NCBI GenBank assembly: GCA_902546615.1
Contig: CACCKE010000005.1
Span: 19-64,018 of the forward strand
Reading direction: 5' to 3'
Source: an uncultured Pelagibacteraceae bacterium
GTDB taxonomy: Bacteria > Pseudomonadota > Alphaproteobacteria > Pelagibacterales > AG-422-B15
DNA: 64,000 nt
Position 1 is the first letter of the stretch. Each line of letters starts with the position of its first letter. The notes below the pieces were generated by a model that searched no databases, was not told the origin of the DNA, and saw only the letters and a list, made by a program, of their open reading frames with translations. A program made the translations under genes and the position numbers. Shown in pieces: positions 16,355 to 42,968 of the stretch.

Positions 16355-16356
16355 AT

Positions 16357-17980: not shown

Positions 17981-18747
17981 TTCCAATTTTTCCATGGCGC
18001 GATATTTTTTTTCCATAAATCTTCAAGTTTACGTTTCTCTCTTAACGTATCCATAGGTTGCCAAAATCCTGAGTGTTTATAAGCTATTAATTCTCCAATC
18101 TTTGATAAGTTTTCAACTGGTTGTTTTTCCCAAATAGTCATATCATCAGATATTAGTTCAATCACTTTTGGTGATAAAACAAAAAAGCCACCATTTATCC
18201 AATCATTTGAGTCCTCATCTTTTTCTTTAAAAGAATTTACAACATTATTATTATCTATTTTTAAGGCTCCAAATCTACTAGGTGGGTGAACAGCCGTTAT
18301 TGTTGCTAATTTCTTATGCTTTCTGTGGAAATTTATTTTATCTTTTATATCAATGTCAGAAACTCCATCCCCATAAGTAAAGCAAAAAAAATCCTCTTCT
18401 TTCACATAATTAGAAACTCTTTTTAATCTGCCACCTGTCATGGTTTCGTAGCCAGTATCAACTAAATTTACTTTCCAAATATTTGACTCAAATTTAACAA
18501 TTAATTGAGTACTTTCATATTTTTCATCAGTATTTTCAGAAATTGAGTGTGATAAGAAAAACTTTTTAATTACTTCCTTTTTATATCCACAACAAATAAT
18601 AAAATCTGTTATTTCTGCTTGTTCATAAAGTTTCATAATATGCCATAATATTGGATATTTGCCTATCAGTACCATTGGCTTAGGCTTGTCAGATGTTTCT
18701 TCACTAATTCTTGTACCTAACCCTCCTGCTAATATTACTGCTTTCAT
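17977..18747 (-). CDS. rfbF: glucose-1-phosphate cytidylyltransferase
   Basis: MKAVILAGGLGTRISEETSDKPKPMVLIGKYPILWHIM, TGGRLKR and GFWQPMDTLREK. These are near-canonical RfbF motifs. Confidence 0.9.
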   Translation of the reverse strand: MKAVILAGGLGTRISEETSDKPKPMVLIGKYPILWHIMKLYEQAEITDFIICCGYKKEVIKKFFLSHSISENTDEKYESTQLIVKFESNIWKVNLVDTGYETMTGGRLKRVSNYVKEEDFFCFTYGDGVSDIDIKDKINFHRKHKKLATITAVHPPSRFGALKIDNNNVVNSFKEKDEDSNDWINGGFFVLSPKVIELISDDMTIWEKQPVENLSKIGELIAYKHSGFWQPMDTLREKRKLEDLWKKNIAPWKNWK

Positions 18748-24322: not shown

Positions 24323-24907
24323 CTAAACCAATTTAAATTTTTTTGCAGGATTCCCAAAAACGATTGTATTACTCTGAATGTTTTTAGTAACTACGCTGCC
24401 AGCACCGATAATGGCATTTTTTCCAATTTTAATGTTTGGTAATATAGTAACATTTGCTCCAATGATACAATTTTCCATGAGCACTGGTGCGGATAAATTT
24501 TCTTTTGTTTCTTTTCTATTTGGATATTTAGCATTAGTTAATACAACATTTGGACCTATCCATACATTCGATTTTAAAATAGTAAATTCAGGTATAAAAA
24601 CATTTGAGTGAATTCTTACGTTATTTCCAATCTTTACATGATGTTCAATTACTGATTGTGTTCCAATGGATACATTATTTCCAATTTCATTTTCTTCTCT
24701 AATATTAACTTTATTGCCTGTTTGAAAATTTGAACCAATTTTATTGCCAGCATAAATATATGTACCGCTTCTCAAGAAAGAGTCTTTCCCTATAGATGTT
24801 GGCTTATTACAATTTTTTGTCTTAATTCCTATTAAACAAAATTCTTCTAATTTTGTATTTTTTCCAAGTTGAACATTGCTATAAATAATAGAGTTCTCAG
24901 ATTTCAT
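24323..24907 (-). CDS. left-handed beta-helix (hexapeptide) N-acetyltransferase, WbpD/WlbB-like
   Basis: Repeated [LIV]-G-x-x-x-x hexapeptides throughout (IGNNVSIGTQSVI, IGNNVRIHSNVFI, IGANVTILPNIKIGKNAIIGAGSVV). Confidence 0.8.
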   Translation of the reverse strand: MKSENSIIYSNVQLGKNTKLEEFCLIGIKTKNCNKPTSIGKDSFLRSGTYIYAGNKIGSNFQTGNKVNIREENEIGNNVSIGTQSVIEHHVKIGNNVRIHSNVFIPEFTILKSNVWIGPNVVLTNAKYPNRKETKENLSAPVLMENCIIGANVTILPNIKIGKNAIIGAGSVVTKNIQSNTIVFGNPAKKFKLV

Positions 24908-28478: not shown

Positions 28479-29519
28479 CTAATCTAACTTAATATTATTT
28501 AACTGTTCTTCATAAAAAAATCTTTTGTCAGCAATATCAACGTTAATTATATTTTCTTCTACTAATTTTTCTTTATAAATTTGATTAACGTAAGTAAAAT
28601 TTTTATATTTATAGAAATTGAATTCATGACTTATACCTTCTACTTCTGAAGCAATAATATGTTTACCTAAACACATATATTCAAACAATTTTGATGAAGC
28701 GCATAACTCTAAATTTTTAATTCTTTTATCATATAATGCAACTGCTGATCGACAATTCTTAACAAGTTGTAACACTTTTTGATTACTTATCAATCCAGTA
28801 GTAACAAGAGTCTTGGAAAACTCATTAGTAATTTTATTAGGTATTAAATTATTAGTACTTACGACAAACTTTAGTTTAAGACTTTTTGCAAATTCACAAA
28901 TTTTAATAAATTCATTGTAGTTATTTATATTTCCAGACAAATAGATATATGCATATTTATCAAAAATTAAATTTTCATCTATAATTGGTTTTGATTTTAA
29001 ACACTGAATAATGTCTATACGTAATGGCATATTTTTTATAAGTACTTTCTCAGATAGAACTTTCTTTTCAATATAATTCATCCTTGGAATTGAGGGCACA
29101 AGTAAAACAACATTAGTACTTTTTAAAATTTTGTTAACAAGATACAGTTTTTCAAATCTCATTAATAATATTATTAAAGATTTTAAAATCTTATAAAAAT
29201 TTTTTTGTTTTAAATTAAACAAAATATTTCTTACATAGTGATCAGATATTAAAGAAAATAGATTAATTGAATATAATTCAAGATTTAATAAATAAATTTT
29301 ATTTATTTTTTTTTCTTTATTTTTTTTTAATATTTCTTTTAAAATATTGTTAGGACTAATATCTGAAACTAAAAGAGTGTCTATCTCTTTATTATTTTCA
29401 AAAAAATTAGATTCATCGACTAATTTTAGGTCTAACTTAGAAGATAAAATTTTAATTCTCTCTATATCTGGTGATTGTAAATTTAAATCGATTAAAGAAA
29501 TTCTATTTTTAGAAATCAT
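28479..29519 (-). CDS. hypothetical protein, possible GT-B glycosyltransferase
   Basis: The C-terminal CASSKLFEYMCLGKHIIASEVEG resembles the GT4 E-x7-E region. The N-terminal half has no recognisable motif. Confidence 0.45.
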   Translation of the reverse strand: MISKNRISLIDLNLQSPDIERIKILSSKLDLKLVDESNFFENNKEIDTLLVSDISPNNILKEILKKNKEKKINKIYLLNLELYSINLFSLISDHYVRNILFNLKQKNFYKILKSLIILLMRFEKLYLVNKILKSTNVVLLVPSIPRMNYIEKKVLSEKVLIKNMPLRIDIIQCLKSKPIIDENLIFDKYAYIYLSGNINNYNEFIKICEFAKSLKLKFVVSTNNLIPNKITNEFSKTLVTTGLISNQKVLQLVKNCRSAVALYDKRIKNLELCASSKLFEYMCLGKHIIASEVEGISHEFNFYKYKNFTYVNQIYKEKLVEENIINVDIADKRFFYEEQLNNIKLD

Positions 29520-29531
29520 TGCTTATTTAAA

Positions 29532-30659
29532 TTATCTTTTGAAACGCTCTTTTAGAATTTTCAAGATCCTTCTTGAAGCCTTGCCGTCCCCATAAGGATT
29601 TTTTTTCTTCAAAAATTTCTTATAGTATCTCTCACTTTTTAATAATTGGCTAACCTCTTTAATAATTCTATTTTTGTTTGTCCCGACAAGCTTAACCAAG
29701 TTATCTTTAACTGCTTCAACTCTCTCAGTTTCTTCTCTTAGAACTATTATTGGCTTCTTAAATGATGGTGCTTCTTCTTGGATCCCTCCTGAATCAGTCA
29801 TTATAAGATATGATTTTTCCATCAGGTAAACAAAAGAATAGTAGTCAAGTGGTTTTAGTAAATGTATATTTTTTTTCTTAGATAAATATTTGTATCCAGG
29901 TTCTCTTATATTTGGATTTGAATGAATAGGATAAACAATATCTACATTGTCGTTTTTTTTAGCAATGCAAATTAATGCTTCACAAATATTTTTAAATGGA
30001 TTTCCAAAGTTTTCCCTTCTATGTGCAGTAACTAATATTAATTTTCTCTTTGGTGATAAAAAATCAAAATTTGCTTGAAGTGTTTTTTTTAAAGATTTAT
30101 CTTTATTTATTATTTTTTTGGTTAACAATAAAGTATCAATTACTGTATTTCCAGTTACAAAAAGTGACTTCTTATCAAATCCTTCTTCGATTAAATTGTT
30201 TTTTGATAATTTTGTAGGACAAAAATGTATTGATGAAATCGTATCAATTAACCTCCGACTTCCCTCTTCAGGCCATGGAGAAAATAAATTTTTAGTTCTC
30301 AAGCCAGCTTCAACATGTGCCACAGGTATCATCTTATAATAAGATGCAATAGAAGCAGCAAAGCTACTTATTGTATCTCCATGCACTAAAACTAATTCTG
30401 GATTTATTTTTTCAATTATTTTTGTTAATCCATTTATTACTCCTTCAGTAATATAAGAAAGAGATTGATTTTTTTTCATTAGATTAAGATTATAATGAGG
30501 TATAATTTTAAACTTTTTAAAAACGTCGTTCAGCATTTGCCTATGCTGACCAGTTGAACAAATAAACACTTTGAAGAATTTATCTTTTCTTAAGGTCTGT
30601 ATCACACTGACCATTTTAATGGCTTCCGGCCTTGTTCCAATCACAATTAATATTTTCAT
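29532..30659 (-). CDS. wecB: UDP-N-acetylglucosamine 2-epimerase (non-hydrolysing), WecB/WbpI type
   Basis: MKILIVIGTRPEAIKM, VHGDT, HVEAGLRT and DSGGIQEEAPSFKKP. Confidence 0.9.
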   Translation of the reverse strand: MKILIVIGTRPEAIKMVSVIQTLRKDKFFKVFICSTGQHRQMLNDVFKKFKIIPHYNLNLMKKNQSLSYITEGVINGLTKIIEKINPELVLVHGDTISSFAASIASYYKMIPVAHVEAGLRTKNLFSPWPEEGSRRLIDTISSIHFCPTKLSKNNLIEEGFDKKSLFVTGNTVIDTLLLTKKIINKDKSLKKTLQANFDFLSPKRKLILVTAHRRENFGNPFKNICEALICIAKKNDNVDIVYPIHSNPNIREPGYKYLSKKKNIHLLKPLDYYSFVYLMEKSYLIMTDSGGIQEEAPSFKKPIIVLREETERVEAVKDNLVKLVGTNKNRIIKEVSQLLKSERYYKKFLKKKNPYGDGKASRRILKILKERFKR

Positions 30660-30672
30660 ATTTTAATCTTAT

Positions 30673-30686
30673 TAGCTTTAAAGCTA
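30673..30686. repeat. perfect 14-bp palindrome TAGCTTTAAAGCTA
   Basis: Read directly from the sequence; it is its own reverse complement. Confidence 0.9.
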
Positions 30687-30690
30687 CTTG

Positions 30691-30712
30691 TTAATGAAAC
30701 AGTTTTCATTAA
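30691..30712. repeat. inverted repeat with 9-bp arms TTAATGAAA / TTTCATTAA and a 4-nt spacer
   Basis: Read directly from the sequence. It lies 32-53 nt upstream of the wecB-like start codon on the minus strand. Confidence 0.9.
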
Positions 30713-30773
30713 AAACTTCATTATATATAAAAAAGCTACTATAAATTAATTTTTAATATATAAAATAACTCTT

Positions 30774-31331
30774 ATGATTTGGAATGAAGTTATTTGTTTA
30801 GGTGACTCGCTAACCTACGGTGCGAGAGATGAATATGAAAGGTCTTATACGTCTGAGCTGCCGCCAATTTTAGAAAAAATAACAAATGAAATTTGGATTT
30901 GCCATAACTATGGCATAAATGGGGAAACTTCGTCAAATCTTTTAAGACGTTCTTGGAGAAATGTTTCTTCTCACCCTCAAGCTAAAATAGTTTGCTTAAT
31001 GATTGGAACTAATGATACTAAACTTCCAACACCTAGTGAAATATATAGAGATAATCTCAGACAAATAATAAATATATGTAAAATACAAAAAAAATTTGTA
31101 ATTCTTGGAACTTTACCAACACTAAAATTAAATCCAAACTATAGACACAATCTAGAGTATATTGATATATATAACACTATTGTTAGGGAATTAGTAAAAG
31201 AAAATAAAATTGAAATTTGTGAATTTGATAACTTAGAGTCATATTTAGTTGATGGTGTTCATTTTGGGAATGAAGGGTATAAAAAAATTGCTGAAATATG
31301 GTCAAAATCAATTTTGAAACTTCAAGAATAG
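30774..31331 (+). CDS. SGNH/GDSL-family hydrolase (possible glycan O-acetyl esterase/transferase)
   Basis: Block I ICLGDSLTYG, block III MIGTNDT and block V DGVHF. Confidence 0.75.
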   Translation: MIWNEVICLGDSLTYGARDEYERSYTSELPPILEKITNEIWICHNYGINGETSSNLLRRSWRNVSSHPQAKIVCLMIGTNDTKLPTPSEIYRDNLRQIINICKIQKKFVILGTLPTLKLNPNYRHNLEYIDIYNTIVRELVKENKIEICEFDNLESYLVDGVHFGNEGYKKIAEIWSKSILKLQE

Positions 31332-32074
31332 CAATAATAGGATCTACGATCCTTACTAAATCTCTCATATCTTATCTTCAAAATGTAAACAATCCAAAGA
31401 TTTTAATGGCTCTTCCTAAAGAAGAAATTAAGATCAAGGCTAATGGCGTTTCATTAGAACGTTTATGTAATAATCTTAAAATTAAATATATAGAAAATAA
31501 TTCATGGGATTATTTTGGAAAAGAATGTATTGCAAAAAAAATAAATCTAATTATCGAATTTGGAGATAGTAGAATAATACCTTCGAAAATTATTAAAAAT
31601 TTTTTTACTATTGGTAATCATGGTGCTTCTTTGCCTACAGTTAAAGGTGGGGCTTCTTTAGTTTGGGGAAGATTGGCAAATCTAAATGAATGGGGAGTAT
31701 CACTGATGAATATATCTAATGGCATAGATAATGGTGACATTATTGCAAAGAAAAAATTTATTTACTCAGATAACACTACAATGTCAGAATTTGTACAAAT
31801 CGCTGATAGAACGACATTAGAATGTCTTGAAGAATTAGTTATTGCTGGCACATATAATCCTATCAAAAATAGTTACGATAGTGAAATTAGAATTGAAAAG
31901 CATTACGACTCATTTCTGGCAGTAAAGAAAATGAAAGATTGCATAAACCAAGGGAAAACAATTTATATGCCACCCAGGACAATAAAAGACTCAAAAATTA
32001 ATTATGACTGGCCTGGAGAATTTATAGAGATTTTTAAAATCGCTAATAATGATCCTTATCCAAAATTTTACTAA
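31298..32074 (+). CDS. formyltransferase-fold protein (divergent)
   Basis: RIAIIGST N-terminus. GNHGASLPTVKGGASLVWGRL...GVSLMNISNGIDNGDII aligns with the H-x-S-L-L-P-x-x-R-G / D-x-G motif region of formyltransferases. 34-nt overlap with the SGNH gene. Confidence 0.55.
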   Translation: MVKINFETSRIAIIGSTILTKSLISYLQNVNNPKILMALPKEEIKIKANGVSLERLCNNLKIKYIENNSWDYFGKECIAKKINLIIEFGDSRIIPSKIIKNFFTIGNHGASLPTVKGGASLVWGRLANLNEWGVSLMNISNGIDNGDIIAKKKFIYSDNTTMSEFVQIADRTTLECLEELVIAGTYNPIKNSYDSEIRIEKHYDSFLAVKKMKDCINQGKTIYMPPRTIKDSKINYDWPGEFIEIFKIANNDPYPKFY

Positions 32075-32889
32075 AACAATTTAATTAGATTTGGATTTTT
32101 CATGATTTTCTTGTTGTATAGATAATAATCAACTATTTTGTTGTCAAATTCATTATAAATAAGGCGCAGGTGCTCTGGCCTAAAATCAGATGTAAGATAA
32201 TTTTTACCTGAGCTTTTTTGCTTATTAAATAGCAATTCTCTACCTTCTAAGGCATAGTTTATAATTTTATTTAATTCCATTTTAGCTTTCACAACAGTAT
32301 TTACTCCTACGTCATGTATTTTTTGACCTTTAGTAAGACTGGGCACACATTGATGCAATATATCTCCTGCATCTGGTTCATTCAAAATCTTATGAAAAGT
32401 TGCACCAGCAAATTGAGGTTCCAAATTATAAAAAGGCCAAAACAAAGTTGCCGAACCTCTATACCAAGGTGATAAACCAAGATGTAAATTTATAGTATTT
32501 TCTGGAAGTATGCTTGAAACAGGATTTTTTATGATATTTGTTCCAAAAATAAAAACAAAATCTGGGGAAAAGTTCTCAACAAAAACTTTCACACTTTCGG
32601 AATTTAATAACTCGGAGTCACATTCTAATATTTGACATTTATTAAATATTTTTTTTATTTGGTCATTGGAGTTAAATAAACCAAATTCATCTTCTTCCCT
32701 TATTGCTCTTTCAAAAAAATGCTTTTCAAAAATTTTTCTATCATTTTCTATTAGATTATTCGGTATTTTTGGTGTTAAATCTTCTCTTTTCATTAAAATA
32801 AGAGAAATTTCAAAATCATATTCAAGAAATAATTTATTAACATATATGTGTCTTGGATGATTACCAGAAAATATTAAAATTTTTTTCAT
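32071..32889 (-). CDS. formyltransferase family protein
   Basis: MKKILIFSG, INLHLGLSPWYRGSATLFWP and NEPDAGDIL (Formyl_trans_N motifs). Its stop codon overlaps the stop of the convergent gene (CTAA). Confidence 0.7.
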   Translation of the reverse strand: MKKILIFSGNHPRHIYVNKLFLEYDFEISLILMKREDLTPKIPNNLIENDRKIFEKHFFERAIREEDEFGLFNSNDQIKKIFNKCQILECDSELLNSESVKVFVENFSPDFVFIFGTNIIKNPVSSILPENTINLHLGLSPWYRGSATLFWPFYNLEPQFAGATFHKILNEPDAGDILHQCVPSLTKGQKIHDVGVNTVVKAKMELNKIINYALEGRELLFNKQKSSGKNYLTSDFRPEHLRLIYNEFDNKIVDYYLYNKKIMKNPNLIKLF

Positions 32890-32890
32890 T

Positions 32891-34192
32891 TTATATTTTT
32901 TTTAAAATATTCTTATTGACAAGAACTTTCAAAATCTTGTCGAGATTAGATTTTTTTATTCTAATTTTATCTAAAACTTCATCAATGCTTGTCTTTCCAT
33001 CACATAAAAAAATAAGCCATAAAATTATATCTAAAGATGAGTGCTTTCCTAAGGTTGGTTTAATTTTACCACCTACTTTTGGATAAAGATCATGTTTAGA
33101 TAACATTGGTTCGCAATATTTATTATTCAAGGAGTAAATTTCTAATCTTTCTAAATTATCAATAATCTTTTTATAAATCTTAAGACTTTTAAAAATATAT
33201 TCTGTTTTAATAAAGTTAAGATTATCCAAAGAAGTATGGTATTCCTTATAATCATAATACTTCGATTTAGATATACTAATTGTATTAATTCTAAATCCTT
33301 GTGATGAATACTGTCTCTCATCACTTCCATGTATATCGAATGGATAAGTTAAATAATTTTTTGATTCACTACTTAATACTTTTTTAGCTATTTGATTGAT
33401 ATAATGTTTGTTATTCCAACTTTCTTTTAAACTATATTTTCCTCTGCCTGCTACTGTAGTTACAACTAATCCAATATCAATATTTTTCATCTTTATTTGA
33501 TTTTTTTTACAGTAAGCAATGGCACCTATAGTTTCTGGTATGAATATAATTCTATAGCTATTAACTCTATTTCTGATTTTAAGAATTTCATTAGCCAATA
33601 AAACAGTCATTACAACACCACTCAGATTATCATTGGCCATAGAGGGATGGCAGATATACGTTGAAATCAAGATTTCTTTTTTTCTTTTACCTTTTAAAAT
33701 TAATTCACCATAATGCATATACCCTTTTGGGTTAAACTGACTTTTAATAAATACTTCGAGCTTATTTTTTGAACTCTCTAAATATTTATACTGGTGCCGA
33801 TTAACACAGAAGCCCCAAGTTTTTCTATAATAACTTGTTCGATAAGGTATCGATTTACTATTTTCATGGTCATAAAAAATATGTTTTTTAAGTTCTTTAA
33901 AACTAATAAATTTATGGATAGACTTGCTATAACTAACAAGATGTAAGTTATTAATTTTAAAATCTACTATTTTTTTTCCAGACGAATCTTTTATCCAAGC
34001 TTCTGATGCATTCCACTCATCTGGAACCTTCCAATCATAAACCTTTGTTCCTGATTTAAATTTTTTCACCTTTAAGGGTATGAACTCTTTTAGCGCAGAT
34101 AGAGTCTCTAGATTACCTTTACCTGTAATGCTTCTATTTATTGGAAAAAGGAATTTCAGTAATTCATTAACTTTTTTTTTAGAAATACTCAT
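32891..34192 (-). CDS. aminopeptidase-like (M28-fold) domain protein with C-terminal winged-helix-like tail, of the type found in polysaccharide loci
   Basis: 433 aa. CHPSMANDNLSGV and FIPETIGA resemble M28-like metal-site segments. The C-terminal LWLIFLCDGKTSIDEVLDKI...LVNKNILKKI looks wHTH-like. Family assignment is from memory (DUF4910/DUF2172-type). Confidence 0.55.
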   Translation of the reverse strand: MSISKKKVNELLKFLFPINRSITGKGNLETLSALKEFIPLKVKKFKSGTKVYDWKVPDEWNASEAWIKDSSGKKIVDFKINNLHLVSYSKSIHKFISFKELKKHIFYDHENSKSIPYRTSYYRKTWGFCVNRHQYKYLESSKNKLEVFIKSQFNPKGYMHYGELILKGKRKKEILISTYICHPSMANDNLSGVVMTVLLANEILKIRNRVNSYRIIFIPETIGAIAYCKKNQIKMKNIDIGLVVTTVAGRGKYSLKESWNNKHYINQIAKKVLSSESKNYLTYPFDIHGSDERQYSSQGFRINTISISKSKYYDYKEYHTSLDNLNFIKTEYIFKSLKIYKKIIDNLERLEIYSLNNKYCEPMLSKHDLYPKVGGKIKPTLGKHSSLDIILWLIFLCDGKTSIDEVLDKIRIKKSNLDKILKVLVNKNILKKI

Positions 34193-35256
34193 ATCAAATC
34201 TTTTTGATCGATCAATTCATCTTCAATTGCATTTTTTTTTAATTTTTTGCCTATGATTGAGTCTAATTCTTTTGGACCTATTCCTGTTCCTGGTCTTTTA
34301 GCAATAATGTCATTTTTCGTCAGAACACCTCCTTTATTAATGTTCTTATTATAATATAAACTCCTTCGAGCATTTGTTCTTGGAATCTCTTCTTCCTTAA
34401 TAGATTCTTTTTCAAAAGAACCTAAGCTCTCTAATAGCAAATCAAGTTTTTTTTGAAGTAAATATAAATCATCTCTATCCATAGCATGATAATGATCATT
34501 TCCAGGTAAAGTTTTGTCGTGTGTAAAGTGTTTTTCAATAACCTTAGCACCAAGAAGAGTGGCTGTTATGATATTTTCCATTTGACTTGGTAATGTATGA
34601 TCTGAATATCCTATTAAATTTTTAGGAAATTTATTTTGTAAATCTTTAATCATTCCAAGATTTGCATTTTTAATTTCAGTAGGATAATTAAGTATACAAT
34701 GCATGATTGAGAATTTAATTTTAAATTTACCGATCCAACCAGCTGCCTCTGTAATTTCATCAACATTTGAAGCACCTGTCGATATTAAAATAGGCTTTTT
34801 AAAACTACAAATATATTCAATGAATGGTTTATTAGTTATATCTGATGAGGATATTTTATAAACTTCCATCAGGTCATTTAAGAATTTAGCTGACTCAAAA
34901 TCAAAAGGTGTACTTAAAAATTCAATTTTAAAATCTTCGCACACTTTTTTTAATATTTCAAATTCGCTTTTCCAGAATTTATCATATTTACTAAATAACT
35001 CATGCTGGCTTTTAATTTTTTCTTTTGATGTATCCCAATATGATGGTGAATTTTTTGATGCTATCGTATCAGCTTTATATGTTTGAAATTTTATTGCATT
35101 AGCTCCAGCATTTGCAGCATCCTCAATTAATTTTTTAGCAAGATCAATATTACATTCATGATTTACCCCAGCTTCCGCAATAATGAAGGGTCTTTGAATT
35201 TGCTCATAATGTGAATTTTTAAAATTTTTAATTAAACTTGAGAGTTCACTTTTCAT
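34189..35256 (-). CDS. nonulosonic-acid synthase, NeuB family (PseI/SpsE-like) with SAF domain
   Basis: FIIAEAGVNHECNIDLAKKLIEDAANAGANAIKFQTY, GYSDHT, and the C-terminal SAF-like RRSLYYNKNINKGGVLTKNDIIAKRPGTGI. Confidence 0.85.
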   Translation of the reverse strand: MKSELSSLIKNFKNSHYEQIQRPFIIAEAGVNHECNIDLAKKLIEDAANAGANAIKFQTYKADTIASKNSPSYWDTSKEKIKSQHELFSKYDKFWKSEFEILKKVCEDFKIEFLSTPFDFESAKFLNDLMEVYKISSSDITNKPFIEYICSFKKPILISTGASNVDEITEAAGWIGKFKIKFSIMHCILNYPTEIKNANLGMIKDLQNKFPKNLIGYSDHTLPSQMENIITATLLGAKVIEKHFTHDKTLPGNDHYHAMDRDDLYLLQKKLDLLLESLGSFEKESIKEEEIPRTNARRSLYYNKNINKGGVLTKNDIIAKRPGTGIGPKELDSIIGKKLKKNAIEDELIDQKDLI

Positions 35257-35931
35257 CTATCTAAATTCCTCAACAATCATTTTGCCATCCATATCTATAT
35301 CAACTTTATGCTTAGATATTTCATTATAGTCTTTGATAGTATCAATATCTAGCTTTAGATTTGAACAAGCAATCTCATTGTCGGGGTCAAAAGTTTTTAT
35401 AGTATATTTTGTTTTATTATTCTTTACGTAATTAAATATATGTTCTTTTTCATCATCATTAAGATTTTTCTCAACCAGTTGTGATATAAGTTTTGATTTA
35501 CAAATTTCTGCACCTAACCCATCAGGATAATTATTTTTATGTGGTATGTTGTTAAATGCTAAATCACATTCATTATTACAAAAATAATTAATTAGTTTAT
35601 CTATCTCTTTATGACATATAAATGGATTATCGGCACAAACTCTTATAACGTTATCACAAGGAAATAATTTAATTGCATCATAAAATCTCTTTACAAGATT
35701 TTTCTCACTACCTCTAAATATTTCAACATCTAGAGACTGAAGATAATCATACAGCGGATCATTTTCAGAAGTATCAGGTATAACAAAAATTAATTTATTA
35801 AAATTACTTGTTTTTTTTACTCTATAATAAACCCAATAAATTACTGGTTTGTTATTTATCATTAGCATTAGTTTATTTTTTAATCTTTTGGAGTTTAATC
35901 TCGCTTGAATAAAAATATTATTGATACTCAT
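35257..35931 (-). CDS. cytidylyltransferase, SpsF/PseF-like (CMP-sugar forming)
   Basis: IFIQARLNSKRLKNK N-terminus (the R-x-x-S-x-R-L-x-x-K motif of the CTP_transf_3 family), 224 aa. Confidence 0.65.
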   Translation of the reverse strand: MSINNIFIQARLNSKRLKNKLMLMINNKPVIYWVYYRVKKTSNFNKLIFVIPDTSENDPLYDYLQSLDVEIFRGSEKNLVKRFYDAIKLFPCDNVIRVCADNPFICHKEIDKLINYFCNNECDLAFNNIPHKNNYPDGLGAEICKSKLISQLVEKNLNDDEKEHIFNYVKNNKTKYTIKTFDPDNEIACSNLKLDIDTIKDYNEISKHKVDIDMDGKMIVEEFR

Positions 35932-36925
35932 TGCACAAATTTGATATTAACTTAACAACCCTTTTTCTATTATTAAACTTTATCTTTTGAAGTTTCCTAT
36001 ATAGTTTTAACCTAAAATCTTTTTTCTGGACTAAATTTGTAAAACTTTTAAATAATAATTTTTTTGTTTTAGTTTTATCATACTTACCAATTGAAATTAC
36101 TCCATTCTTAGGATTACTAAAATTGTGAGTGAGTTCCCTAGTATGCTGTGATATTACAATCGAAGGGATATTCAGATGTGCTAATTCGTGAACAGTCCTG
36201 CCATTAGAGCATATAGCAATATCAGATTTTAACATATATTTTGAAATTACATTTGTACTGTGAGTAAGGGATATATTCTTCATATTCTTTTTTAAGATCA
36301 TATTTTGTAGTTCAGAATATTTGCGATAACCTGGCCCGGTTACTATATTTATGAAAATATTTGCCACATTACAATAATCATAGATATGTTCGAGAGTCTT
36401 TCTAGTTATACTTTTATTGTCTGTGCCACCAAAAGTAATTAATACACTTTTTACTTTCTTAGGAAAGTTTTTAGGCTTTATATTAAAAAATTCTTCTCTC
36501 AAAAGTGCATATTTGTGCCCCCAAACAATATTATTATATTTGAGTATTGGATTTTCATAAAGTTCATTAATTACTAAATCGGCATACTTAATACCTTTAC
36601 CAAGATCTTCAAAATTTATTACATTAATATTGTTTTGTTTTAAAGGATATACATCTGACTTACTTGTATTAAGTATGTCATTAATAACTAAATCAGGTTT
36701 TTGCTTAACTATATTTTTTATTATATTGATTCTACTTGAAATCGTACATTTTAAATTTTTTTTCAATAAGATTTTATACGCTAAAATATTTTGGTTATCA
36801 GTTATAAATTTGATATTAAAGTTGAAGTTTTTAAGTTCCTTTAAAATTGATAGTCCTCTATATACATGGCCAAGTCCTACAGTCTTATTGCCAATGACCC
36901 TAAAAATAATTAATTTTTTTTTCAT
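35918..36925 (-). CDS. PseG/SpsG-like UDP-sugar hydrolase (GT28-related fold)
   Basis: FRVIGNKTVGLGHVYRGLSILKEL matches the R-x-D...G-x-GH-x-x-R motif of PseG/SpsG. 14-nt overlap with the downstream cytidylyltransferase gene. Confidence 0.65.
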   Translation of the reverse strand: MKKKLIIFRVIGNKTVGLGHVYRGLSILKELKNFNFNIKFITDNQNILAYKILLKKNLKCTISSRINIIKNIVKQKPDLVINDILNTSKSDVYPLKQNNINVINFEDLGKGIKYADLVINELYENPILKYNNIVWGHKYALLREEFFNIKPKNFPKKVKSVLITFGGTDNKSITRKTLEHIYDYCNVANIFINIVTGPGYRKYSELQNMILKKNMKNISLTHSTNVISKYMLKSDIAICSNGRTVHELAHLNIPSIVISQHTRELTHNFSNPKNGVISIGKYDKTKTKKLLFKSFTNLVQKKDFRLKLYRKLQKIKFNNRKRVVKLISNLCNEYQ

Positions 36926-36933
36926 TAATTATT

Positions 36934-38109
36934 TTATATTTTTTTTAGTATTTTTTTTGTAGATGAAAGAATTTGATCAATTTCATTATCTGTTAATCTA
37001 TGATGAAATGGAAAGGAAACCATTCTATCAAAGAAATAATCAGCATTCTGGCATGAAGAATCAGAATATCCGAGTTTTCTATAAAAATCATATCGATTTA
37101 ATGGCAAGTATTGGACTGCGCATTGTATTCCTTCTTCATTAGCCATTAATTCTATAAACCTATCTCTTACTTCATGATTGTTAAAATATGCTGCTAAAAG
37201 ATGATAATTGTGTTGCAAACTATCTACTTTGTGAAAATTTAAAATATCAAATTCTTTTAATTCCTCAATAAATCTAATAGCACGTCTTCTTTTACTACTA
37301 TTTATATCATAAACCCTGTCTAATAAAATTGAGCCTAAAGCACACTGAACTTCAGTTATACAGTAATTGTTAGGAAAAAACATTTCATTATTAATAACAC
37401 TTATATCAAGATTTCCCATCGCGGGTTTCCAATATTCGTTACGTGAATAATCAAAGTCACAATGTCCATTATGCCTTAGCTTTGGTATTTCTTTTGAGAT
37501 TTCTTCATTATCTACAATTAACATTCCTCCTTCACCCAAGGTAGTAATATTTTTATGTGAATGAAAAGAAAAAATACTAAAGTCTCCAAACGTACCAACT
37601 TTATCATCTCCTATACTTGTTCCAATAGCTTGAGCGGCATCTTCAATTAAAAGTACATTCTTTGTATTTAAAATTTCTTTTAATGTCCTTACATCTTTAA
37701 AATACCCATATAAATGTGGAACTACAACAGCTTTGGTATTTTTAGTTAATTTATTTATAATAGATTCGTCACTTACTACTCTTGTATCAAGGTCAATATC
37801 AGCCCATACAATTTTGGCACCATTTTTAATGAATGGGTAACAACTAGATGTATAAGTGTGGGTTGGAATTATTACCTCGTCGTTTTTTTTAAAATTACAT
37901 AGTTGAGCAGTAAGTTCTAATGCAGATGTTGCACTATTTACAGCAAAGGCATTTTTTTTGCCAATGAAATTTTCAAACTTATTTTCAAACTCAGTAATTT
38001 TATTTCCCATCGTTAAAATATTTAAACTTGTTATTGTATCTTTAATTACTAGCATCTCTTCTTCAGTATAATCAATACTTTTACTAGAAAATGGAATACG
38101 ATATTTCAT
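36934..38109 (-). CDS. PLP-dependent sugar aminotransferase, DegT family (SpsC/PseC-like)
   Basis: NSATSALELT and the lysine motif FSFHSHKNITTLGEGG. Confidence 0.8.
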   Translation of the reverse strand: MKYRIPFSSKSIDYTEEEMLVIKDTITSLNILTMGNKITEFENKFENFIGKKNAFAVNSATSALELTAQLCNFKKNDEVIIPTHTYTSSCYPFIKNGAKIVWADIDLDTRVVSDESIINKLTKNTKAVVVPHLYGYFKDVRTLKEILNTKNVLLIEDAAQAIGTSIGDDKVGTFGDFSIFSFHSHKNITTLGEGGMLIVDNEEISKEIPKLRHNGHCDFDYSRNEYWKPAMGNLDISVINNEMFFPNNYCITEVQCALGSILLDRVYDINSSKRRRAIRFIEELKEFDILNFHKVDSLQHNYHLLAAYFNNHEVRDRFIELMANEEGIQCAVQYLPLNRYDFYRKLGYSDSSCQNADYFFDRMVSFPFHHRLTDNEIDQILSSTKKILKKI

Positions 38110-38849
38110 TAATTATTTCTTAATTTTATTTGTTCTTTTAATTCTCTTTCATATCTCTTCAATAAAAACTTATCTTTTTGAGATTTTTTACTTTTATACC
38201 GTAATGTTATTCCAACTCTTGAGGAATTACTTGTATTGCTTAAGCTTCCATGAGCAATTAAAGAATGGTGAATTAAACAATCCCCTGGCTTAAGTGAAGG
38301 GTAAACCTTGCTAAAAGCATCTAGGCCCATTGGAAATTTTAACTTCTGAGATGAACCTGGCACATTTGATGGAATATGCTCTAATAAGCCAAGTAAATGA
38401 CTTTTTTTATAATAATAAATTCCTCCATTTTCTTTATTAGCTTTATCCAAAGCTATCCATATAGTGATTGCGTTAGGATTATTTAAACACCAATAATAAT
38501 TATCTTGGTGCGTTGGAACTGATAAACCAGTTCTCTTAGGTTTATAAAAAAGTTCTGCTCCAAAATTTTCAATTTTTTCACCAATTATTTTTTTAGCAAT
38601 AGTCCTTATTGATTTCGAATTCTGCAACTCTGATATCCATTTCCATTTAGTTAAATCATGGACAGAATTAATTTTTTTATTTTTTGTAAAATTAATTTGT
38701 CTGGCACTAAGTTTTTTTTGATATCTTTGAAGAAATATTTCTAAGTCTTGTTTAATTTTTTTCGTATTTTTTTCATTGAGAAATTTTGGTATTTTAATAA
38801 AGCCATTACGATGAAATTCTTCGACTTTTTTTTTTGTTAACGACGTCAT
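38109..38849 (-). CDS. phytanoyl-CoA dioxygenase (PhyH) family Fe(II)/2-oxoglutarate oxygenase
   Basis: PTHQDNYYW (HxD) and the distal HHSLIAHGS...R. 1-nt overlap with the aminotransferase start. Confidence 0.7.
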   Translation of the reverse strand: MTSLTKKKVEEFHRNGFIKIPKFLNEKNTKKIKQDLEIFLQRYQKKLSARQINFTKNKKINSVHDLTKWKWISELQNSKSIRTIAKKIIGEKIENFGAELFYKPKRTGLSVPTHQDNYYWCLNNPNAITIWIALDKANKENGGIYYYKKSHLLGLLEHIPSNVPGSSQKLKFPMGLDAFSKVYPSLKPGDCLIHHSLIAHGSLSNTSNSSRVGITLRYKSKKSQKDKFLLKRYERELKEQIKLRNN

Positions 38850-38866
38850 TTACTGATAATATAAAC

Positions 38867-40060
38867 TTATTTAAGAAAATTTATCCATTTTTTTCTCAAA
38901 TCATTCGCATTTTCTAATGGAAATAATTTATTTGTATTTGATATTATTTTTGATTCATTAAGATTAGAGCATTCATTTATAAAATCATCTGGATTATCAC
39001 AAAAAGTTACATAGGGTTTTATCGTTTCTGATATAGTGTTTGAAGTGCCATATCTTATAAATATAGTATACTTACCTAGCATTAGGGCATCTATAGAGGC
39101 ACTTGATCCATAAAAAACACAGATATCACTCCACATTATTGCTTCAGTTAGAGATTCTTTAAATACTTTATATTTTCTAATATCTTTGAATAAATATTTT
39201 TCTTCCCAATCATTTAATTTTCCATTTCTAATATGGGGCCTAAATCCTATTTCCAAGTTATCATTTAATTCTACAATTCTAATACTTCTTCTTATTTCTT
39301 CTTGATTGATATTGGTTTTGAAATTACTGTGAAGAAATAAAACTCTTTTTTTTCTATATAAAAAATTTCTCTTACTAAATCTACGAGATATTAATTTCTG
39401 CCATTCTTTTGTATTTCGAAATGATTTCATAATTCTTATTTTATTCTCCCAAGAAATACCTATTTTCCTAAACTTATTTAAAGTAGTTTTAGAATTTAGA
39501 ATAAGTTGGTCACAATCATGAACAATAGAAATTGTTTTATTAAAATACCTATCTTCTCCCTGATGAATATAATTTCCTTTATCATGGTTAAGGTTACTCA
39601 ACGCTGGAATAGCTTCAGATATACCTATTACTTTACCTTTAAAACCATTTTTCTTAAAATCGTGAATTAATTGTTTAACTAGTAAATCATTTCCAGGTCT
39701 AACAAGTAAATATTTAAAATTTTTTATTGAGTGCAACGGAACAATTACACTTATAAATATTTTAGAAATTTCTTTAGTTCTAACGGTATGTATATATTTA
39801 TTGAGATATTCGTTATTAATTCTTAATTTTATTAGTAATCTTTGTATTAGAAATAACAACCTATAGTATGAAGTATTTTTTTGATCAAAAACAATTACTT
39901 CTAATTTTGATTTTATGTCTCTTGTAAGCTCAGAATTCTTAATTAAATTAAAGATATCAACAAGTACAAATTTTTTCCCTAGAAAATAACCCATAGGAGC
40001 CATCTCATTTAAAACTATTAGATCATGAACTATTGCTATAACATTTTCTTTTAACTTCAT
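38867..40060 (-). CDS. uncharacterised protein, possible GT-B transferase of TagF / capsule-synthesis type
   Basis: Weak motifs only: IGFRPHIRNG and IMWSDICVFYGSSASIDALMLGKYTIF. Confidence 0.45.
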   Translation of the reverse strand: MKLKENVIAIVHDLIVLNEMAPMGYFLGKKFVLVDIFNLIKNSELTRDIKSKLEVIVFDQKNTSYYRLLFLIQRLLIKLRINNEYLNKYIHTVRTKEISKIFISVIVPLHSIKNFKYLLVRPGNDLLVKQLIHDFKKNGFKGKVIGISEAIPALSNLNHDKGNYIHQGEDRYFNKTISIVHDCDQLILNSKTTLNKFRKIGISWENKIRIMKSFRNTKEWQKLISRRFSKRNFLYRKKRVLFLHSNFKTNINQEEIRRSIRIVELNDNLEIGFRPHIRNGKLNDWEEKYLFKDIRKYKVFKESLTEAIMWSDICVFYGSSASIDALMLGKYTIFIRYGTSNTISETIKPYVTFCDNPDDFINECSNLNESKIISNTNKLFPLENANDLRKKWINFLK

Positions 40061-40068
40061 TATCTTAT

Positions 40069-41595
40069 CTAATTTAAAATGGATTTTATTAATTTTTGAA
40101 AATAATTATTAAACCTTTTTAATTCGTTTTCTTTAAGTTTAAATAAAAATTGTTCTGATAAGAATCCTTTTCTCATAAGAAGATTCATTTTCTCTAATTT
40201 TACTGAATCTGAAGGAATCCCTTTATTTTTAGATTTTATCAGTGAATTAATATTTATTAAATTTTCAACATTGTTACAATCATATACATATGGTAATTCT
40301 TTCCAAATTGATTTTCCTATTGCAAAACTAGGAATATCGTTAAAAAAAGCCTCTAACATAATATTGCCCCTAACAGTAAGAACACCTTCTAATTTGGGAT
40401 GAAACAAAATATCTTTTATGGAAAAATTTTGATCTATAAAATAAACATTTTTTTGAGCTAGTAATTCTTTATAGAAAAATTCTGATCTATATGATTGATT
40501 TCGAGCAGAATTCATGGTGAATTGTCTCGGATGTTCTTTTATTAAAATAGAAATATCTTTATCAAGATAATCTCTTATTAACCTTAATAGTAAATATTGA
40601 TTTGAGTATTCCATGCCATCAGGGCAAGTTGATCTTTCAGGCTGATAATGCAAAGGGAAAAAAATAAATTGACGATTTTTGTCAATTTTTTTTATTGATT
40701 TTGATTTATAATAATTCAATAATTTTTTAGTTTTAAAATGAATAAGCTGCCGTGATAAATGAAAATTAAAATAAGTAATTTTTTTATCAATTTTACCTAT
40801 CTCGTCAGTAGAATAATTATTTGTATAAGTTTTTTGAAAAATAATATTTTTAAACAATGAAGCCCAAAGTATAGTTTTTTGTATAATATTTAGATTTATA
40901 GGTTTAATTAGATTTTTTAATTCTTCAATTGCATTTTCTTTCTCCAGTCCATTATATGAATTAGTTAAACTTGAAACTGAATTAATTTCTAGCAATGGCT
41001 CATCATCATTCAATAGACATTCTCTACTATCTAAGTCAGATATGGGGGTCGCTATTAATAATCTTTGTAATTTATTGTTAATATTCTTATGATAGAAATT
41101 ATGATGGTTAAAAATTATAATTTTTTTTTTAAAATATTTAAAAATTAAATAAATTATATAATCATAAACATCATGTGGAGTATCAAACTGAATATAAAGA
41201 TCAATTTTATTTTCTAATATATATTTATACCAATAGTATAATTGATTATAAATATAAGTTGTTTTATCACTATGTGAAAAATGTTTATAGGTTTCAAACC
41301 TGCCCATCATATCTACAATAATAGATAGATGCTTGTCAAAAAAATCTAATAGCTCTTTTTCAACTTGACTTTTTTCATCAAGGTTCTCTAATCTTTTTAA
41401 CCTTATAATGTCATAATTATTTAAAAATAAGGTATCTGAGAATTTCTTTATTAAATCCTCTTTTTCAGAATTTGAATGAACAATCCATGTACATACTTTA
41501 AAGAGATTATTTTTCTCACATTCAATAATTGCAGCATTAATAGATTCTGAAGAATGAATTACTATTGCATTATTGGTTACACTATTAACTGACAT
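40069..41595 (-). CDS. uncharacterised 508-aa protein, possible surface-carbohydrate (nonulosonate?) transferase
   Basis: FIFFPLHYQPERSTCPDG and ILIKEHPRQ...GVLTVRGNIMLEAFFNDIPSFAIG resemble capsule-synthesis / GT-B patterns. No firm family call. Confidence 0.45.
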   Translation of the reverse strand: MSVNSVTNNAIVIHSSESINAAIIECEKNNLFKVCTWIVHSNSEKEDLIKKFSDTLFLNNYDIIRLKRLENLDEKSQVEKELLDFFDKHLSIIVDMMGRFETYKHFSHSDKTTYIYNQLYYWYKYILENKIDLYIQFDTPHDVYDYIIYLIFKYFKKKIIIFNHHNFYHKNINNKLQRLLIATPISDLDSRECLLNDDEPLLEINSVSSLTNSYNGLEKENAIEELKNLIKPINLNIIQKTILWASLFKNIIFQKTYTNNYSTDEIGKIDKKITYFNFHLSRQLIHFKTKKLLNYYKSKSIKKIDKNRQFIFFPLHYQPERSTCPDGMEYSNQYLLLRLIRDYLDKDISILIKEHPRQFTMNSARNQSYRSEFFYKELLAQKNVYFIDQNFSIKDILFHPKLEGVLTVRGNIMLEAFFNDIPSFAIGKSIWKELPYVYDCNNVENLININSLIKSKNKGIPSDSVKLEKMNLLMRKGFLSEQFLFKLKENELKRFNNYFQKLIKSILN

Positions 41596-41616
41596 ATATC
41601 CTCTAAACTATCAAAA

Positions 41617-42396
41617 TCAAAAGCAAAGTAAATTTTCTTTAATACGTCTAAAATTGTAATTATTATTTTTTAATATATTAATCAAATCCTCTAAACCGTT
41701 TTTATAAGTATGTTCATGAATTTCAAAAAGAATTAATGGATGATAATTGATTTTATTTTTTATAAATAAATCTTGAATGACATCAACTTCAAATCCTTCA
41801 ATATCCATAACAATAATATCTGGTTTAAATACTATATTGTTTAGAAACTCTGAAATACGCATATTCTTCTGAACCTCGGCTTCTTTCATTTTTAATTTTT
41901 TTCGATCGTTGAGCCTTTTAATCGCATTATATGGATGCATGTCGTCTTTTGAAAAAATAACTTTATTATCTGAATTACTTATGAATAGGTTAAATATTTT
42001 AGTATTTTTTAACTTATTAATTTCAAAGTTTTTTTGCAAAATTTTAAAAATATTTGGAGTTCCCTCTACTGAAACTAGATTACCAGTCGGTCCAACGAGG
42101 TGATCGAGTAATACGGTAAATTCTCCGTAACATGCTCCCAGCTCCAAAACGTTCATACCCGGTCTTACCAATGACCTGTATACAGCTGTGGTTTCTGGTT
42201 CTCTTTTACCTTCAATTCTTTGAACGATTGCTGGACCTATCTTTTGATTCAAAAATGTTAACTTGTAATGAAAGCCATCTAAATTTATATCAAAAATATT
42301 ATCATTTTTTTTTGATAATCTTGAGTAAGATTTTATCTTAATCCAATAATATAGTTTCCAATATATTAAAGAAATTTTTTGGAAAAATTTGTGCAT
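41617..42396 (-). CDS. FkbM-family SAM-dependent methyltransferase
   Basis: MNVLELGACYGEFT motif I, VMDIEGFE, about 259 aa. Confidence 0.65.
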   Translation of the reverse strand: MHKFFQKISLIYWKLYYWIKIKSYSRLSKKNDNIFDINLDGFHYKLTFLNQKIGPAIVQRIEGKREPETTAVYRSLVRPGMNVLELGACYGEFTVLLDHLVGPTGNLVSVEGTPNIFKILQKNFEINKLKNTKIFNLFISNSDNKVIFSKDDMHPYNAIKRLNDRKKLKMKEAEVQKNMRISEFLNNIVFKPDIIVMDIEGFEVDVIQDLFIKNKINYHPLILFEIHEHTYKNGLEDLINILKNNNYNFRRIKENLLCF

Positions 42397-42404
42397 AAGA
42401 TTTT

Positions 42405-42968
42405 CTATAATTGATTAGATAACCATTGCATACAAATGTGACAAACTATAAGTTGAAGATCTTCAGAAATTTGCATATCATCAATTGAAAAATGAATGCA
42501 GTGCTTACTTATTTTTTTACATTCGCCTCCGTTAAATCCCAAAATGGAAAAAGTATTAACTTCTAATTTATTTGCAAATTTTATCGCCTCTATAACATTA
42601 GGTGAGTTACCACTTCCTGATAGCACAATTAACATATCGCCCTTGTCAGCTTTAACTCTAAGTTGTTCTGAATAGATTGAGTCATAAGAGACATCGTTTG
42701 CTAGACATGTAATGACAGAAGGATTAGCACTTAATGCCTCAATTCTAATCCCTCCATATTCCTTGTTATTGCATGCGACGCCATAAATAAAATCATTTGC
42801 TATATGAATCGCATTTCCTGCACTTCCACCATTACCACAGATAAATATATTTTTTTTACTCTTCCAGGCATGTAACAAACTTTGACATAGAATTTCTATA
42901 TTTTTGTTTATATCTTCATTGAATGCACTTAATAGTCTTGATTTATATTTTTCTATAAAATCTTTCAT
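42405..42968 (-). CDS. gmhA: SIS-domain sugar-phosphate isomerase, GmhA-like (sedoheptulose-7-P isomerase; a PtmF-like role is not excluded)
   Basis: IFICGNGGSAGNAIHIANDF, LSGSGNSPNVIEAI, 187 aa; collinear with GmhA. Confidence 0.7.
   Translation of the reverse strand: MKDFIEKYKSRLLSAFNEDINKNIEILCQSLLHAWKSKKNIFICGNGGSAGNAIHIANDFIYGVACNNKEYGGIRIEALSANPSVITCLANDVSYDSIYSEQLRVKADKGDMLIVLSGSGNSPNVIEAIKFANKLEVNTFSILGFNGGECKKISKHCIHFSIDDMQISEDLQLIVCHICMQWLSNQL

Follow-up and report, generated by a model that had tools for sequence, protein, structure and literature searches.

The region analysed here is a run of nine open reading frames (ORFs) at positions 30774-38849 of a 64,000-nucleotide stretch of DNA, the whole of which is called the window, from an uncultured bacterium of the SAR11 group (Pelagibacterales). 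SAR11 is the most abundant bacterial group of the ocean, and its hypervariable glycan island is thought to determine which phages infect a cell. One very large surface-glycan island fills the window from about 1.4 kb to 62 kb at a G+C content of 23-32% across the window; the contig is number 5 in a 31-contig, 879-kb assembly of a genome that is 58% complete. A first-pass annotation made from the sequence alone had described the nine ORFs as an Sps/Pse-like nonulosonic acid (NulO) module that lacks an acetyltransferase and holds two formyltransferase-fold genes, a peptidase-fold protein and a PhyH dioxygenase. ORF coordinates and domain searches agreed with that description for all nine ORFs, their families and the overlaps at their junctions.

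The genes on the minus strand begin with a PhyH-family Fe(II)/2-oxoglutarate oxygenase (38109-38849, 246 amino acids [aa]; PF05721, 95.7 bits), which overlaps by 1 nt a DegT/PseC/SpsC-type pyridoxal phosphate (PLP) sugar aminotransferase (36934-38109, 391 aa; PF01041, 272 bits). These are followed by a PseG/SpsG-fold nucleotide-sugar hydrolase (35918-36925, 335 aa), an SpsF-type cytidylyltransferase (35257-35931, 224 aa) and a NeuB-family NulO synthase with a SAF domain (34189-35256, 355 aa; PF03102, 239 bits; PF08666). The synthase gene overlaps by 4 nt the gene for a 433-aa DUF4910/DUF2172/HTH_47 protein of the Cj1295/CA_C2195 family (32891-34192; PF16254, 281 bits; PF09940, 101.5 bits; PF16221, 33.8 bits). 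Formyltransferase B, an ArnA-N/WbkC-like sugar N-formyltransferase (32071-32889, 272 aa; PF00551, 27.0 bits with a gathering score of 26.1), begins 1 nt beyond the stop of DUF4910 and shares its operon. On the plus strand, an SGNH/GDSL hydrolase gene (30774-31331, 185 aa; PF13472, 83.4 bits) overlaps by 34 nt the gene for formyltransferase-fold protein A (31298-32074, 258 aa; PF00551, 24.3 bits, below the gathering score of 26.1). The two convergent formyltransferase-fold genes end in a shared CTAA at 32071-32074, which reads TAA for the plus-strand gene and TAG for the minus-strand one. Promoter and terminator scans of 29500-42500 gave sites that were no commoner than in shuffled sequence of this AT-rich DNA.

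On a metagenome scaffold (L021), these genes recur with order and orientation unchanged and with protein identities of 50-78%, running from PhyH through DegT, the PseG-like hydrolase (50% identical and in the same position), the SpsF-like enzyme, NeuB, DUF4910 and formyltransferase B to the convergent formyltransferase A and SGNH, and then to WecB and an amidotransferase set. Because it recurs gene for gene, the arrangement is not a product of chance, and the module stands as a genuine, conserved variation on a pathway type that is already known. Its unusual genes are three separately conserved pairs, DUF4910 with formyltransferase B, PhyH with DegT, and SGNH with formyltransferase A, in each case with the first-named gene upstream. 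The type of pathway, the precedent for formyl groups and the neighbourhood of DUF4910 had already been published; what is added here is the resolution into three pairs, the tight link from DUF4910 to the formyltransferase and the viral spread of the SGNH-formyltransferase cassette.

Core enzymes of the module

The first-pass annotation spoke of an Sps/Pse-like logic, of which the Sps part stood and the Pse part proved weaker. The enzyme types of SpsC, SpsG, SpsE and SpsF (DegT, PseG-fold, NeuB and CTP_transf_3) lie contiguously, as an Sps/legionaminic-type set. The aminotransferase has its PLP lysine, K186, within the motif SFHSHK, and its best NCBIfam model was PseC at 224 bits (cut-off 423.5). 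The hydrolase scored 138.8 bits with the PseG model TIGR03590 (cut-off 153.55) and matched Campylobacter jejuni PseG (PDB 3hbm) with an E-value of 4.3e-7. For the synthase, the score was higher with NeuB_NnaB (311 bits; cut-off 399.65) than with PseI (237 bits; cut-off 340.25), and the best match in the PDB was Bacillus subtilis SpsE (1vli, E 1.9e-42), ahead of meningococcal NeuB and a PseI structure. The SpsF-type enzyme (PF02348, CTP_transf_3, 75.9 bits; the cytidylyltransferase PDB 6oew, E 2.5e-22), which is presumed to be the cytidine monophosphate (CMP)-NulO synthetase of this branch, matched neither the PseF nor the NeuA equivalog in the NCBIfam search.

No PseB equivalog was found in the assembled genome, where the best match was the dehydratase at 4311-6170 (172 bits; cut-off 407.75), and the only match to the PseH equivalog lies on another contig at 40 bits (cut-off 93.1), with none in the window. 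"Pse-like" is therefore a weaker description than "Sps/Leg-like", because the synthase is closer to NeuB/SpsE than to PseI and because no PseB, PseH or PseF equivalog was found. A true pseudaminic acid pathway (PseB-C-H-G-I-F) was considered and rejected, as four of its six equivalogs (PseB, PseH, PseI and PseF) were not found. The annotation's claim that there is no acetyltransferase inside the module was upheld by the domain search, which found no GNAT or hexapeptide type within 30774-38849; an SpsD-type N-acetyltransferase was likewise not found within those positions.

The only candidate in the window for supplying a 4-keto sugar to the aminotransferase is the gene at 4311-6170 on the plus strand, which codes for a 619-aa, membrane-anchored uridine diphosphate (UDP)-N-acetylglucosamine (GlcNAc) 4,6-dehydratase of the PglF/WbpM type. 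The B. subtilis Sps route was defined genetically, and PglF can replace SpsM in this legionaminic acid (Leg) pathway (PMC7439481). In two relatives (L021 and L030), a soluble dehydratase is located nearer to the module.

DUF4910 and formyltransferase B

The peptidase-like protein of the module has a DUF4910 domain with an inserted DUF2172 domain and a C-terminal permuted domain of the winged helix-turn-helix type (HTH_47), and over residues 8-409 it matches CA_C2195 (PDB 3k9t) with an E-value of 2.5e-90. A weak match to Peptidase_M28 was also found. H182, D188 and H319 match the single-zinc ligands of 3k9t, while S184 and P219 replace the Asp and Glu of M28 peptidases, and H182, S184, D188, P219 and H319 are each at least 97% conserved among 110 homologues. 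Action as a peptidase on proteins was rejected, as the catalytic residues are replaced. In CA_C2195 itself, one zinc ion is bound by a His/Asp/His set, and the catalytic Asp and Glu of M28 peptidases are missing (Das et al. 2014, PMC4000134). The same study located it within operons for sugar modification, with spsE and spsF among their genes and in some cases fused genes, and proposed a transacylase or amidase role; the word "formyl" is absent from its main text, and a few formyltransferase neighbours appear in its supplementary tables (PMC4000134). In C. jejuni, Cj1295 is required for 5-N-(2,3-di-O-methylglyceroyl) pseudaminic acid and was hypothesised by the authors to remove the N5-acetyl group (Hitchen et al. 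2010, PMC3068675). The first-pass statement that the peptidase-fold protein has no role in any characterised NulO pathway was thus too strong, since Cj1295 is tied to N5 modification of pseudaminic acid and since both the spsE/spsF context and the non-peptidase active site were published in 2014 (PMC4000134).

A neighbourhood survey found the peptidase-like gene syntenic with neuB and spsF in many genomes, in keeping with the module membership that had been proposed for it. When loci were fetched by DUF4910 alone, neuB lay within 10 kb in 14 of 23. Of 8,000 candidate clusters that were scored, 7,998 matched, which makes this a very large family, and a scan of named genomes with DUF4910 gave 12 loci, several of them on short contigs. 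Some relatives of about 670 aa have an N-terminal SpsF-type domain fused to a C-terminal DUF4910 domain, and these fusions place the DUF4910 reaction beside CMP activation. DUF4910 was also seen within frames of 767 and 839 aa (L049 8697-11000, from G044, and G225:C18:819-1838), whose N-terminal extensions match no protein of the module and may be further fusion partners.

In formyltransferase B, N134-x-H136...D173 aligns with the ArnA triad (NLHGSLLP...DAG) and is invariant in 50 homologues. Its AlphaFold2 model has a predicted local distance difference test (pLDDT) score of 95.1, and Foldseek matched it to ArnA-N (5j63; E 4.9e-12, template modelling [TM] score 0.63) and also to WbkC, VioF, WbtJ and WlaRD; these closest structures are all nucleotide-sugar N-formyltransferases. 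Both formyltransferase-fold assignments of the first-pass annotation were confirmed in this way, as the confident models of the two proteins match ArnA-N, WbkC and VioF.

The link between the two genes was surveyed in 301 Pelagibacterales genomes, of which 56 have DUF4910 and 13 have formyltransferase B (threshold E <=1e-20). Formyltransferase B was directly downstream of DUF4910 on the same strand in 8 of the 13 and within 5 kb of it in 2 more, and the remaining 3 matches were the weakest and came from genomes without DUF4910; these tallies are counts and not a test, as related genomes are not independent. At 46-49% identity, the adjacency was found in one Bacteroidetes metagenome-assembled genome and on two JGI contigs, and a fourth homologue of formyltransferase B sits at a contig edge, adjoining neuB. 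Among IMG/VR viral contigs, a formyltransferase B homologue adjoins and follows DUF4910 in 6 of 15 loci, and others follow a PseB/PglF-like dehydratase or neuB. The pair also occurs without neuB, divergent beside the mraZ-ftsI division genes (L026). On a tree of DUF4910 with 39 rows, adjacency to the formyltransferase was clustered, with 6 changes against a shuffled mean of 11.5, a count that is biased because the rows were partly collected through formyltransferase B. A single origin of the adjacency within DUF4910 was rejected, as the tree forces at least 5 changes (gains or losses).

Two further settings of the pair were observed. In two genomes of the other Pelagibacterales family (L031 12657-13424 and L035 11240-12004), it lies just upstream of an NAD kinase gene, which adjoins it in L035 and is separated from it by one gene in L031; the surrounding 10 kb contain no neuB, and the site is a recurring position outside the glycan island core. 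Three distant loci (L023, L024 and L025) share a recurrent cassette that has, in this order, an iron-dependent alcohol dehydrogenase (Fe-ADH), an aminotransferase, a small GT2 glycosyltransferase, NeuB, SpsF, DUF4910, the formyltransferase and an LIC12162-family protein. We take their Fe-ADH and aminotransferase to recall the KdnB/KdnA route to 8-amino-Kdo. If this likeness holds, amination in these loci would come after formation of the ulosonic acid.

PhyH and the aminotransferase

The iron triad of the PhyH protein (H114-x-D116...H200) is intact, and its nearest solved relatives are MysH, EvdO2, SnoK and EctD; sugar tailoring enzymes, EvdO2 and SnoK/SnoN, are among its solved relatives. Of 13 strong homologues in the SAR11 sample, 7 have a DegT-family gene immediately after them in the same orientation, and 10 have one no more than 1.5 kb away. 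In 6 of these 13, neuA, neuB, neuC or spsF was present in the 1.5-kb flanks, compared with none for the weaker paralogues. A literature search joining PhyH with NulO gave no mention of PhyH or phytanoyl-CoA dioxygenase among the top-ranked papers.

SGNH hydrolase and formyltransferase A

The first-pass annotation had treated the two formyltransferase genes bordering the module as one feature. Formyltransferases A and B have no significant similarity to each other (BLASTP E 3.9), which rules out a duplicated pair, and each belongs to its own conserved pair. The two converging genes thus belong to two different cassettes. Structure prediction for protein A gave an AlphaFold2 model with a pLDDT of 96.5, in which Foldseek recognised a complete formyltransferase fold (TM 0.72-0.76) with matches to the FDH hydrolase domain, ArnA-N and WbkC. 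Its family has G106-N107-H108-G109-A110...D144 as an invariant motif; His108 and Asp144 are kept, and the Asn stands one position later than usual. The SGNH protein has all of its blocks, GDS (S12), GTND (N80) and DGVH (D160, H163).

The 19 other loci examined are on 3 contigs from metagenomes and on 16 viral contigs from IMG/VR, with lengths of up to 123 kb. In all of them an SGNH gene stands immediately before the homologue of protein A, and the two overlap as in the window in 3 of the 3 loci with genes called. Epimerase_2 (WecB-like) is downstream of formyltransferase A in 11 of the 19 and directly after it in 8. In the window, a WecB-type non-hydrolysing UDP-GlcNAc 2-epimerase gene (29532-30659, minus strand; TIGR00236, 465.8 bits, cut-off 210) is the divergent neighbour of the SGNH gene. 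Among the neighbouring genes are one that is PhoH-like (phrog_2765, 376 bits) and one for a phage-type exonuclease. Protein A had no match in a collection of 50,697 records from cultured phages, so the viral link is one to uncultivated IMG/VR contigs and their phage-like neighbours. It points to gene flow between viruses and the glycan islands of their hosts. The SGNH-formyltransferase A pair, as a third and independent cassette, probably edits a different sugar from that of the NulO branch.

On the putative marine viral genomes (L027-L029 and L050-L065), the pair lies within large glycan blocks that hold GT4, Epimerase_2, GNAT, short DegT, methyltransferase and carbamoyltransferase genes, adjoined by PhoH and the phage exonuclease. 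One of them (L028) also has a RuBisCO-large-like gene at 16369-17553.

Proposed route and alternatives

The observations above cover the gene families with their folds and catalytic residues, and the arrangement of the genes in operons, pairs and fusions; the substrates, step order, stereochemistry and product of the route are inferred. The reading that we favour, with moderate confidence, is that this part of the hypervariable island is functional and encodes one branch for making a CMP-activated 5,7-diamino NulO of the Sps/legionaminic type, whose N-acyl groups are set by DUF4910 and formyltransferase B. A UDP-4-keto-6-deoxy-N-acetylhexosamine would be formed, probably by the PglF-like dehydratase at 4311-6170, and aminated by the DegT enzyme; the PseG-fold hydrolase would free the hexose, the SpsE-like synthase would condense it with phosphoenolpyruvate, and the SpsF-type enzyme would activate the resulting NulO with CMP. 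The N-acyl pattern would come from the DUF4910-formyltransferase B pair and not from PseH, SpsD or LegH. Formyltransferase B, a folate-type enzyme with an intact Asn-His-Asp, would add a formyl group and so supply the N-acyl group that those acetyltransferases otherwise provide. The DUF4910 protein, which we propose to be an N-deacylase or acyl-editing enzyme, would most likely cleave an N-acyl group (acetyl or formyl) from the sugar at CMP activation or in an adjacent step. This would give a product that has N-formyl instead of N-acetyl, or that combines one formyl group with a free amine. PhyH probably tailors the substrate or the product of the aminotransferase, by hydroxylation or by formation of a keto group.

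An N-formyl NulO, which the first-pass annotation considered a reasonable product, is indeed credible because there are three published precedents. PseJ makes Pse5Ac7Fo (PDB 6ci2, 6ci4; PMC11040635), Halorubrum carries 5-N-formyl-legionaminic acid, and CMP-NulOs with one N-formyl group and one free amine have been measured in Ca. Kuenenia stuttgartiensis, where a deacetylase and a formyltransferase are located between leg-like genes (bioRxiv 10.64898/2026.04.20.719630). The forms found in Kuenenia show that N-acyl editing occurs at the nucleotide-sugar stage.

Several points weigh against the favoured reading. All NulO equivalog models scored below their cut-offs, so the identity and stereochemistry of the sugar are not fixed, and the lack of PseB and PseH holds for the assembled part of a genome of 58% completeness. 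The module does not have a dehydratase of its own, the candidate at 4311-6170 being 25 kb away. The island has hexapeptide acetyltransferases only outside the module, at 24323-24907 and 60179-60814, and as these are present elsewhere in the island, the NulO pathway may use them. That DUF4910 acts as an amidase is a published hypothesis. The DUF4910 genes of Kuenenia, Chroococcidiopsis and Streptomyces are found in cytidine diphosphate (CDP)-hexose/C-methyltransferase clusters without neuB, which suggests that the role of the family may exceed N-editing of NulOs; the family may act generally on cytidine-nucleotide-linked sugars. Lastly, some formyltransferase B homologues stand beside PseB/PglF-like dehydratases without DUF4910, which fits a simple PseJ-like step better than it fits editing.

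In such a step, formyltransferase B would simply formylate the 4-amino group of the UDP-hexose to give a 5-acetamido-7-formamido NulO, and DUF4910 would not be an amidase but have another role, for example as a transacylase, a partner of SpsF or a scaffold. We regard this as unlikely, though as an alternative to be taken seriously: PseJ itself is a precedent, the nearest structures of formyltransferase B all act on nucleoside diphosphate (NDP)-amino sugars, transacylation is among the options of Das et al. (PMC4000134), and the homologues that stand beside dehydratases without DUF4910 in several viral-contig loci (L069, L071, L072 and L080) favour so simple a substitution, as does a locus in which the pair adjoins a dehydratase and a DegT gene (L033). 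However, it leaves the adjacency of DUF4910 and formyltransferase B unexplained, and this adjacency is kept even at loci whose surrounding 10 kb are free of aminotransferase, dehydratase and neuB genes (L026, L031 and L035). Pairs that persist far from any aminotransferase favour deacylation followed by formylation over a PseJ-like step. In addition, the Cj1295 phenotype is at N5, and because this nitrogen derives from the acetamido group of GlcNAc, it must be deacylated before it can be re-acylated.

Deacylation might instead come last, as in the Arn pathway, with a transient formyl group that pulls a reversible transamination and is later removed by DUF4910 to leave a free amine on the NulO. 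The closeness of ArnA-N to formyltransferase B in structure, the free amine on the Kuenenia CMP-NulOs and the small GT2 gene that accompanies the cassette in the distant loci L023, L024 and L025 all agree with this, but the Kuenenia sugar retains one formyl group and no ArnC-like GT2 gene adjoins the pair in the window. The published DUF4910 clusters of Campylobacter and C. acetobutylicum also name no formyltransferase and hold acetyltransferases and acyl carrier proteins, and altogether we think transient formylation improbable. We give similarly little credence to the idea that the formyltransferase pairs take part in making other island sugars, for example a 2,3-diamino uronic acid, a GalNAcA-type sugar or a CDP-linked C-methyl hexose, and that the NulO branch is acetylated by the NeuD/PglD-like protein of 60179-60814. 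The window does hold this acetyltransferase, DUF4910 is tied to CDP-hexose/C-methyl clusters in other phyla and such a set is present at 14295-18747, and the SGNH-formyltransferase A pair travels with WecB and not with neuB. However, the acetyltransferase ends a different, divergent operon 21 kb away, whereas DUF4910 overlaps neuB by 4 nt and is followed 1 nt past its stop by formyltransferase B in one operon. SpsF::DUF4910 fusions exist, and 14 of the 23 loci fetched by DUF4910 alone have neuB no more than 10 kb from it, both of which also speak against a service to other sugars.

The favoured reading can be extended, tentatively and at a probability that we put well below even, to a general role in which DUF4910 proteins are N-deacylases of (CMP-)NulOs and form with formyltransferase B a portable cassette for turning acetyl groups into formyl groups or free amines, with SGNH and formyltransferase A as a viral, non-homologous counterpart. 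If this were true, the SGNH-formyltransferase A pair, often with WecB, would be exchanged between marine viruses and SAR11 glycan islands, and both hosts and phages would rewrite the N-acyl pattern of surface sugars. The enzymes of the module would explain the origin of N-formyl and free-amine NulOs. The question of what the Cj1295/CA_C2195 family does biochemically dates from 2010-2014 and bears on the variation of the Campylobacter flagellin glycan. The three conserved enzyme pairs described here can each be tested by itself.

Other genes of the glycan island

The island also contains an O-antigen-ligase-like gene, a polyprenyl-phosphate sugar transferase, a CDP-hexose C-methyl pathway, a WbpB/D/E trio, a WbuX/HisH/HisF amidotransferase set, two NeuB-type synthases, an ABC exporter and a split-transketolase operon, in addition to the PglF-type dehydratase and a CE4 deacetylase. 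The latter (8686-9540, minus strand; TIGR03006, 230 bits, cut-off 276) is a polysaccharide deacetylase and a further possible de-N-acetylase within the island. The CDP-hexose set (RfbF, RfbG, an RmlC-like protein and a C-methyltransferase) occupies 14295-18747. The same genes border DUF4910 in Kuenenia, Chroococcidiopsis and Streptomyces (PMC4000134 supplement). The hexapeptide acetyltransferase at 24323-24907 is WbpD-like. That at 60179-60814 (plus strand) belongs to the NeuD/PglD/LegH family (TIGR03570, 139.2 bits, cut-off 160.8, E 5e-41; PF00132, Hexapep); it closes the split-transketolase operon and, as a candidate for the acetylation of a 4-amino sugar, ranks first in the window.

The second NeuB-type synthase (44870-45877) is 32% identical to that of 34189-35256, and the NeuA-like gene of the same second module has no BLAST similarity to the SpsF-type enzyme. 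Between the two NulO modules, at 38867-41595 on the minus strand, are two ORFs of 397 and 508 aa without a Pfam or NCBIfam match. The relative L021 has a PseB-like dehydratase and an epimerase in their place.

Comparison with known systems

Among the nearest known systems is the B. subtilis Sps pathway (SpsM, SpsC, SpsD and SpsG along with SpsE and SpsF; PMC7439481), with which the module shares the aminotransferase, PseG-fold, synthase and SpsF types. That pathway can be started by a PglF-type dehydratase, and the window has one, although it lies 25 kb from the module. Unlike the Sps pathway, the module is without SpsD and has DUF4910, a formyltransferase and PhyH. With Cj1295 and CA_C2195 (3k9t), the DUF4910 protein shares the three-domain architecture, the zinc ligands, the replaced M28 residues and a context of the spsE/spsF type. 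The partners differ, as those named for Campylobacter and Clostridium are acetyltransferase-family, acyl-carrier and HAD/FkbH-like proteins of glyceroyl chemistry, whereas the partner in the window is a formyltransferase.

Like PseJ, formyltransferase B is a formyltransferase-fold enzyme that stands in the place of the acetyltransferase in a NulO cluster. The similarity to PseJ is distant, however, both for formyltransferase B (E 8e-5) and for protein A (E 4.5e-6), and ArnA-N and WbkC are closer to B. We know of no DUF4910 partner of PseJ. The Leg-like cluster of Kuenenia resembles the module, going by its description, in having a deacylase and a formyltransferase between NulO genes and two cytidylyltransferase-like genes, but the DUF4910 gene of Kuenenia itself is in the CDP-hexose cluster. 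Finally, ArnA-N and ArnD of the UDP-4-amino-4-deoxyarabinose (UDP-Ara4N) pathway also combine a formyltransferase with a metal-dependent amide hydrolase, and ArnA-N is the closest structure to formyltransferase B. ArnD nevertheless has a CE4 fold and DUF4910 an M28-like one, the window has no ArnC or ArnT, and the substrate in the window would come from a NulO pathway.

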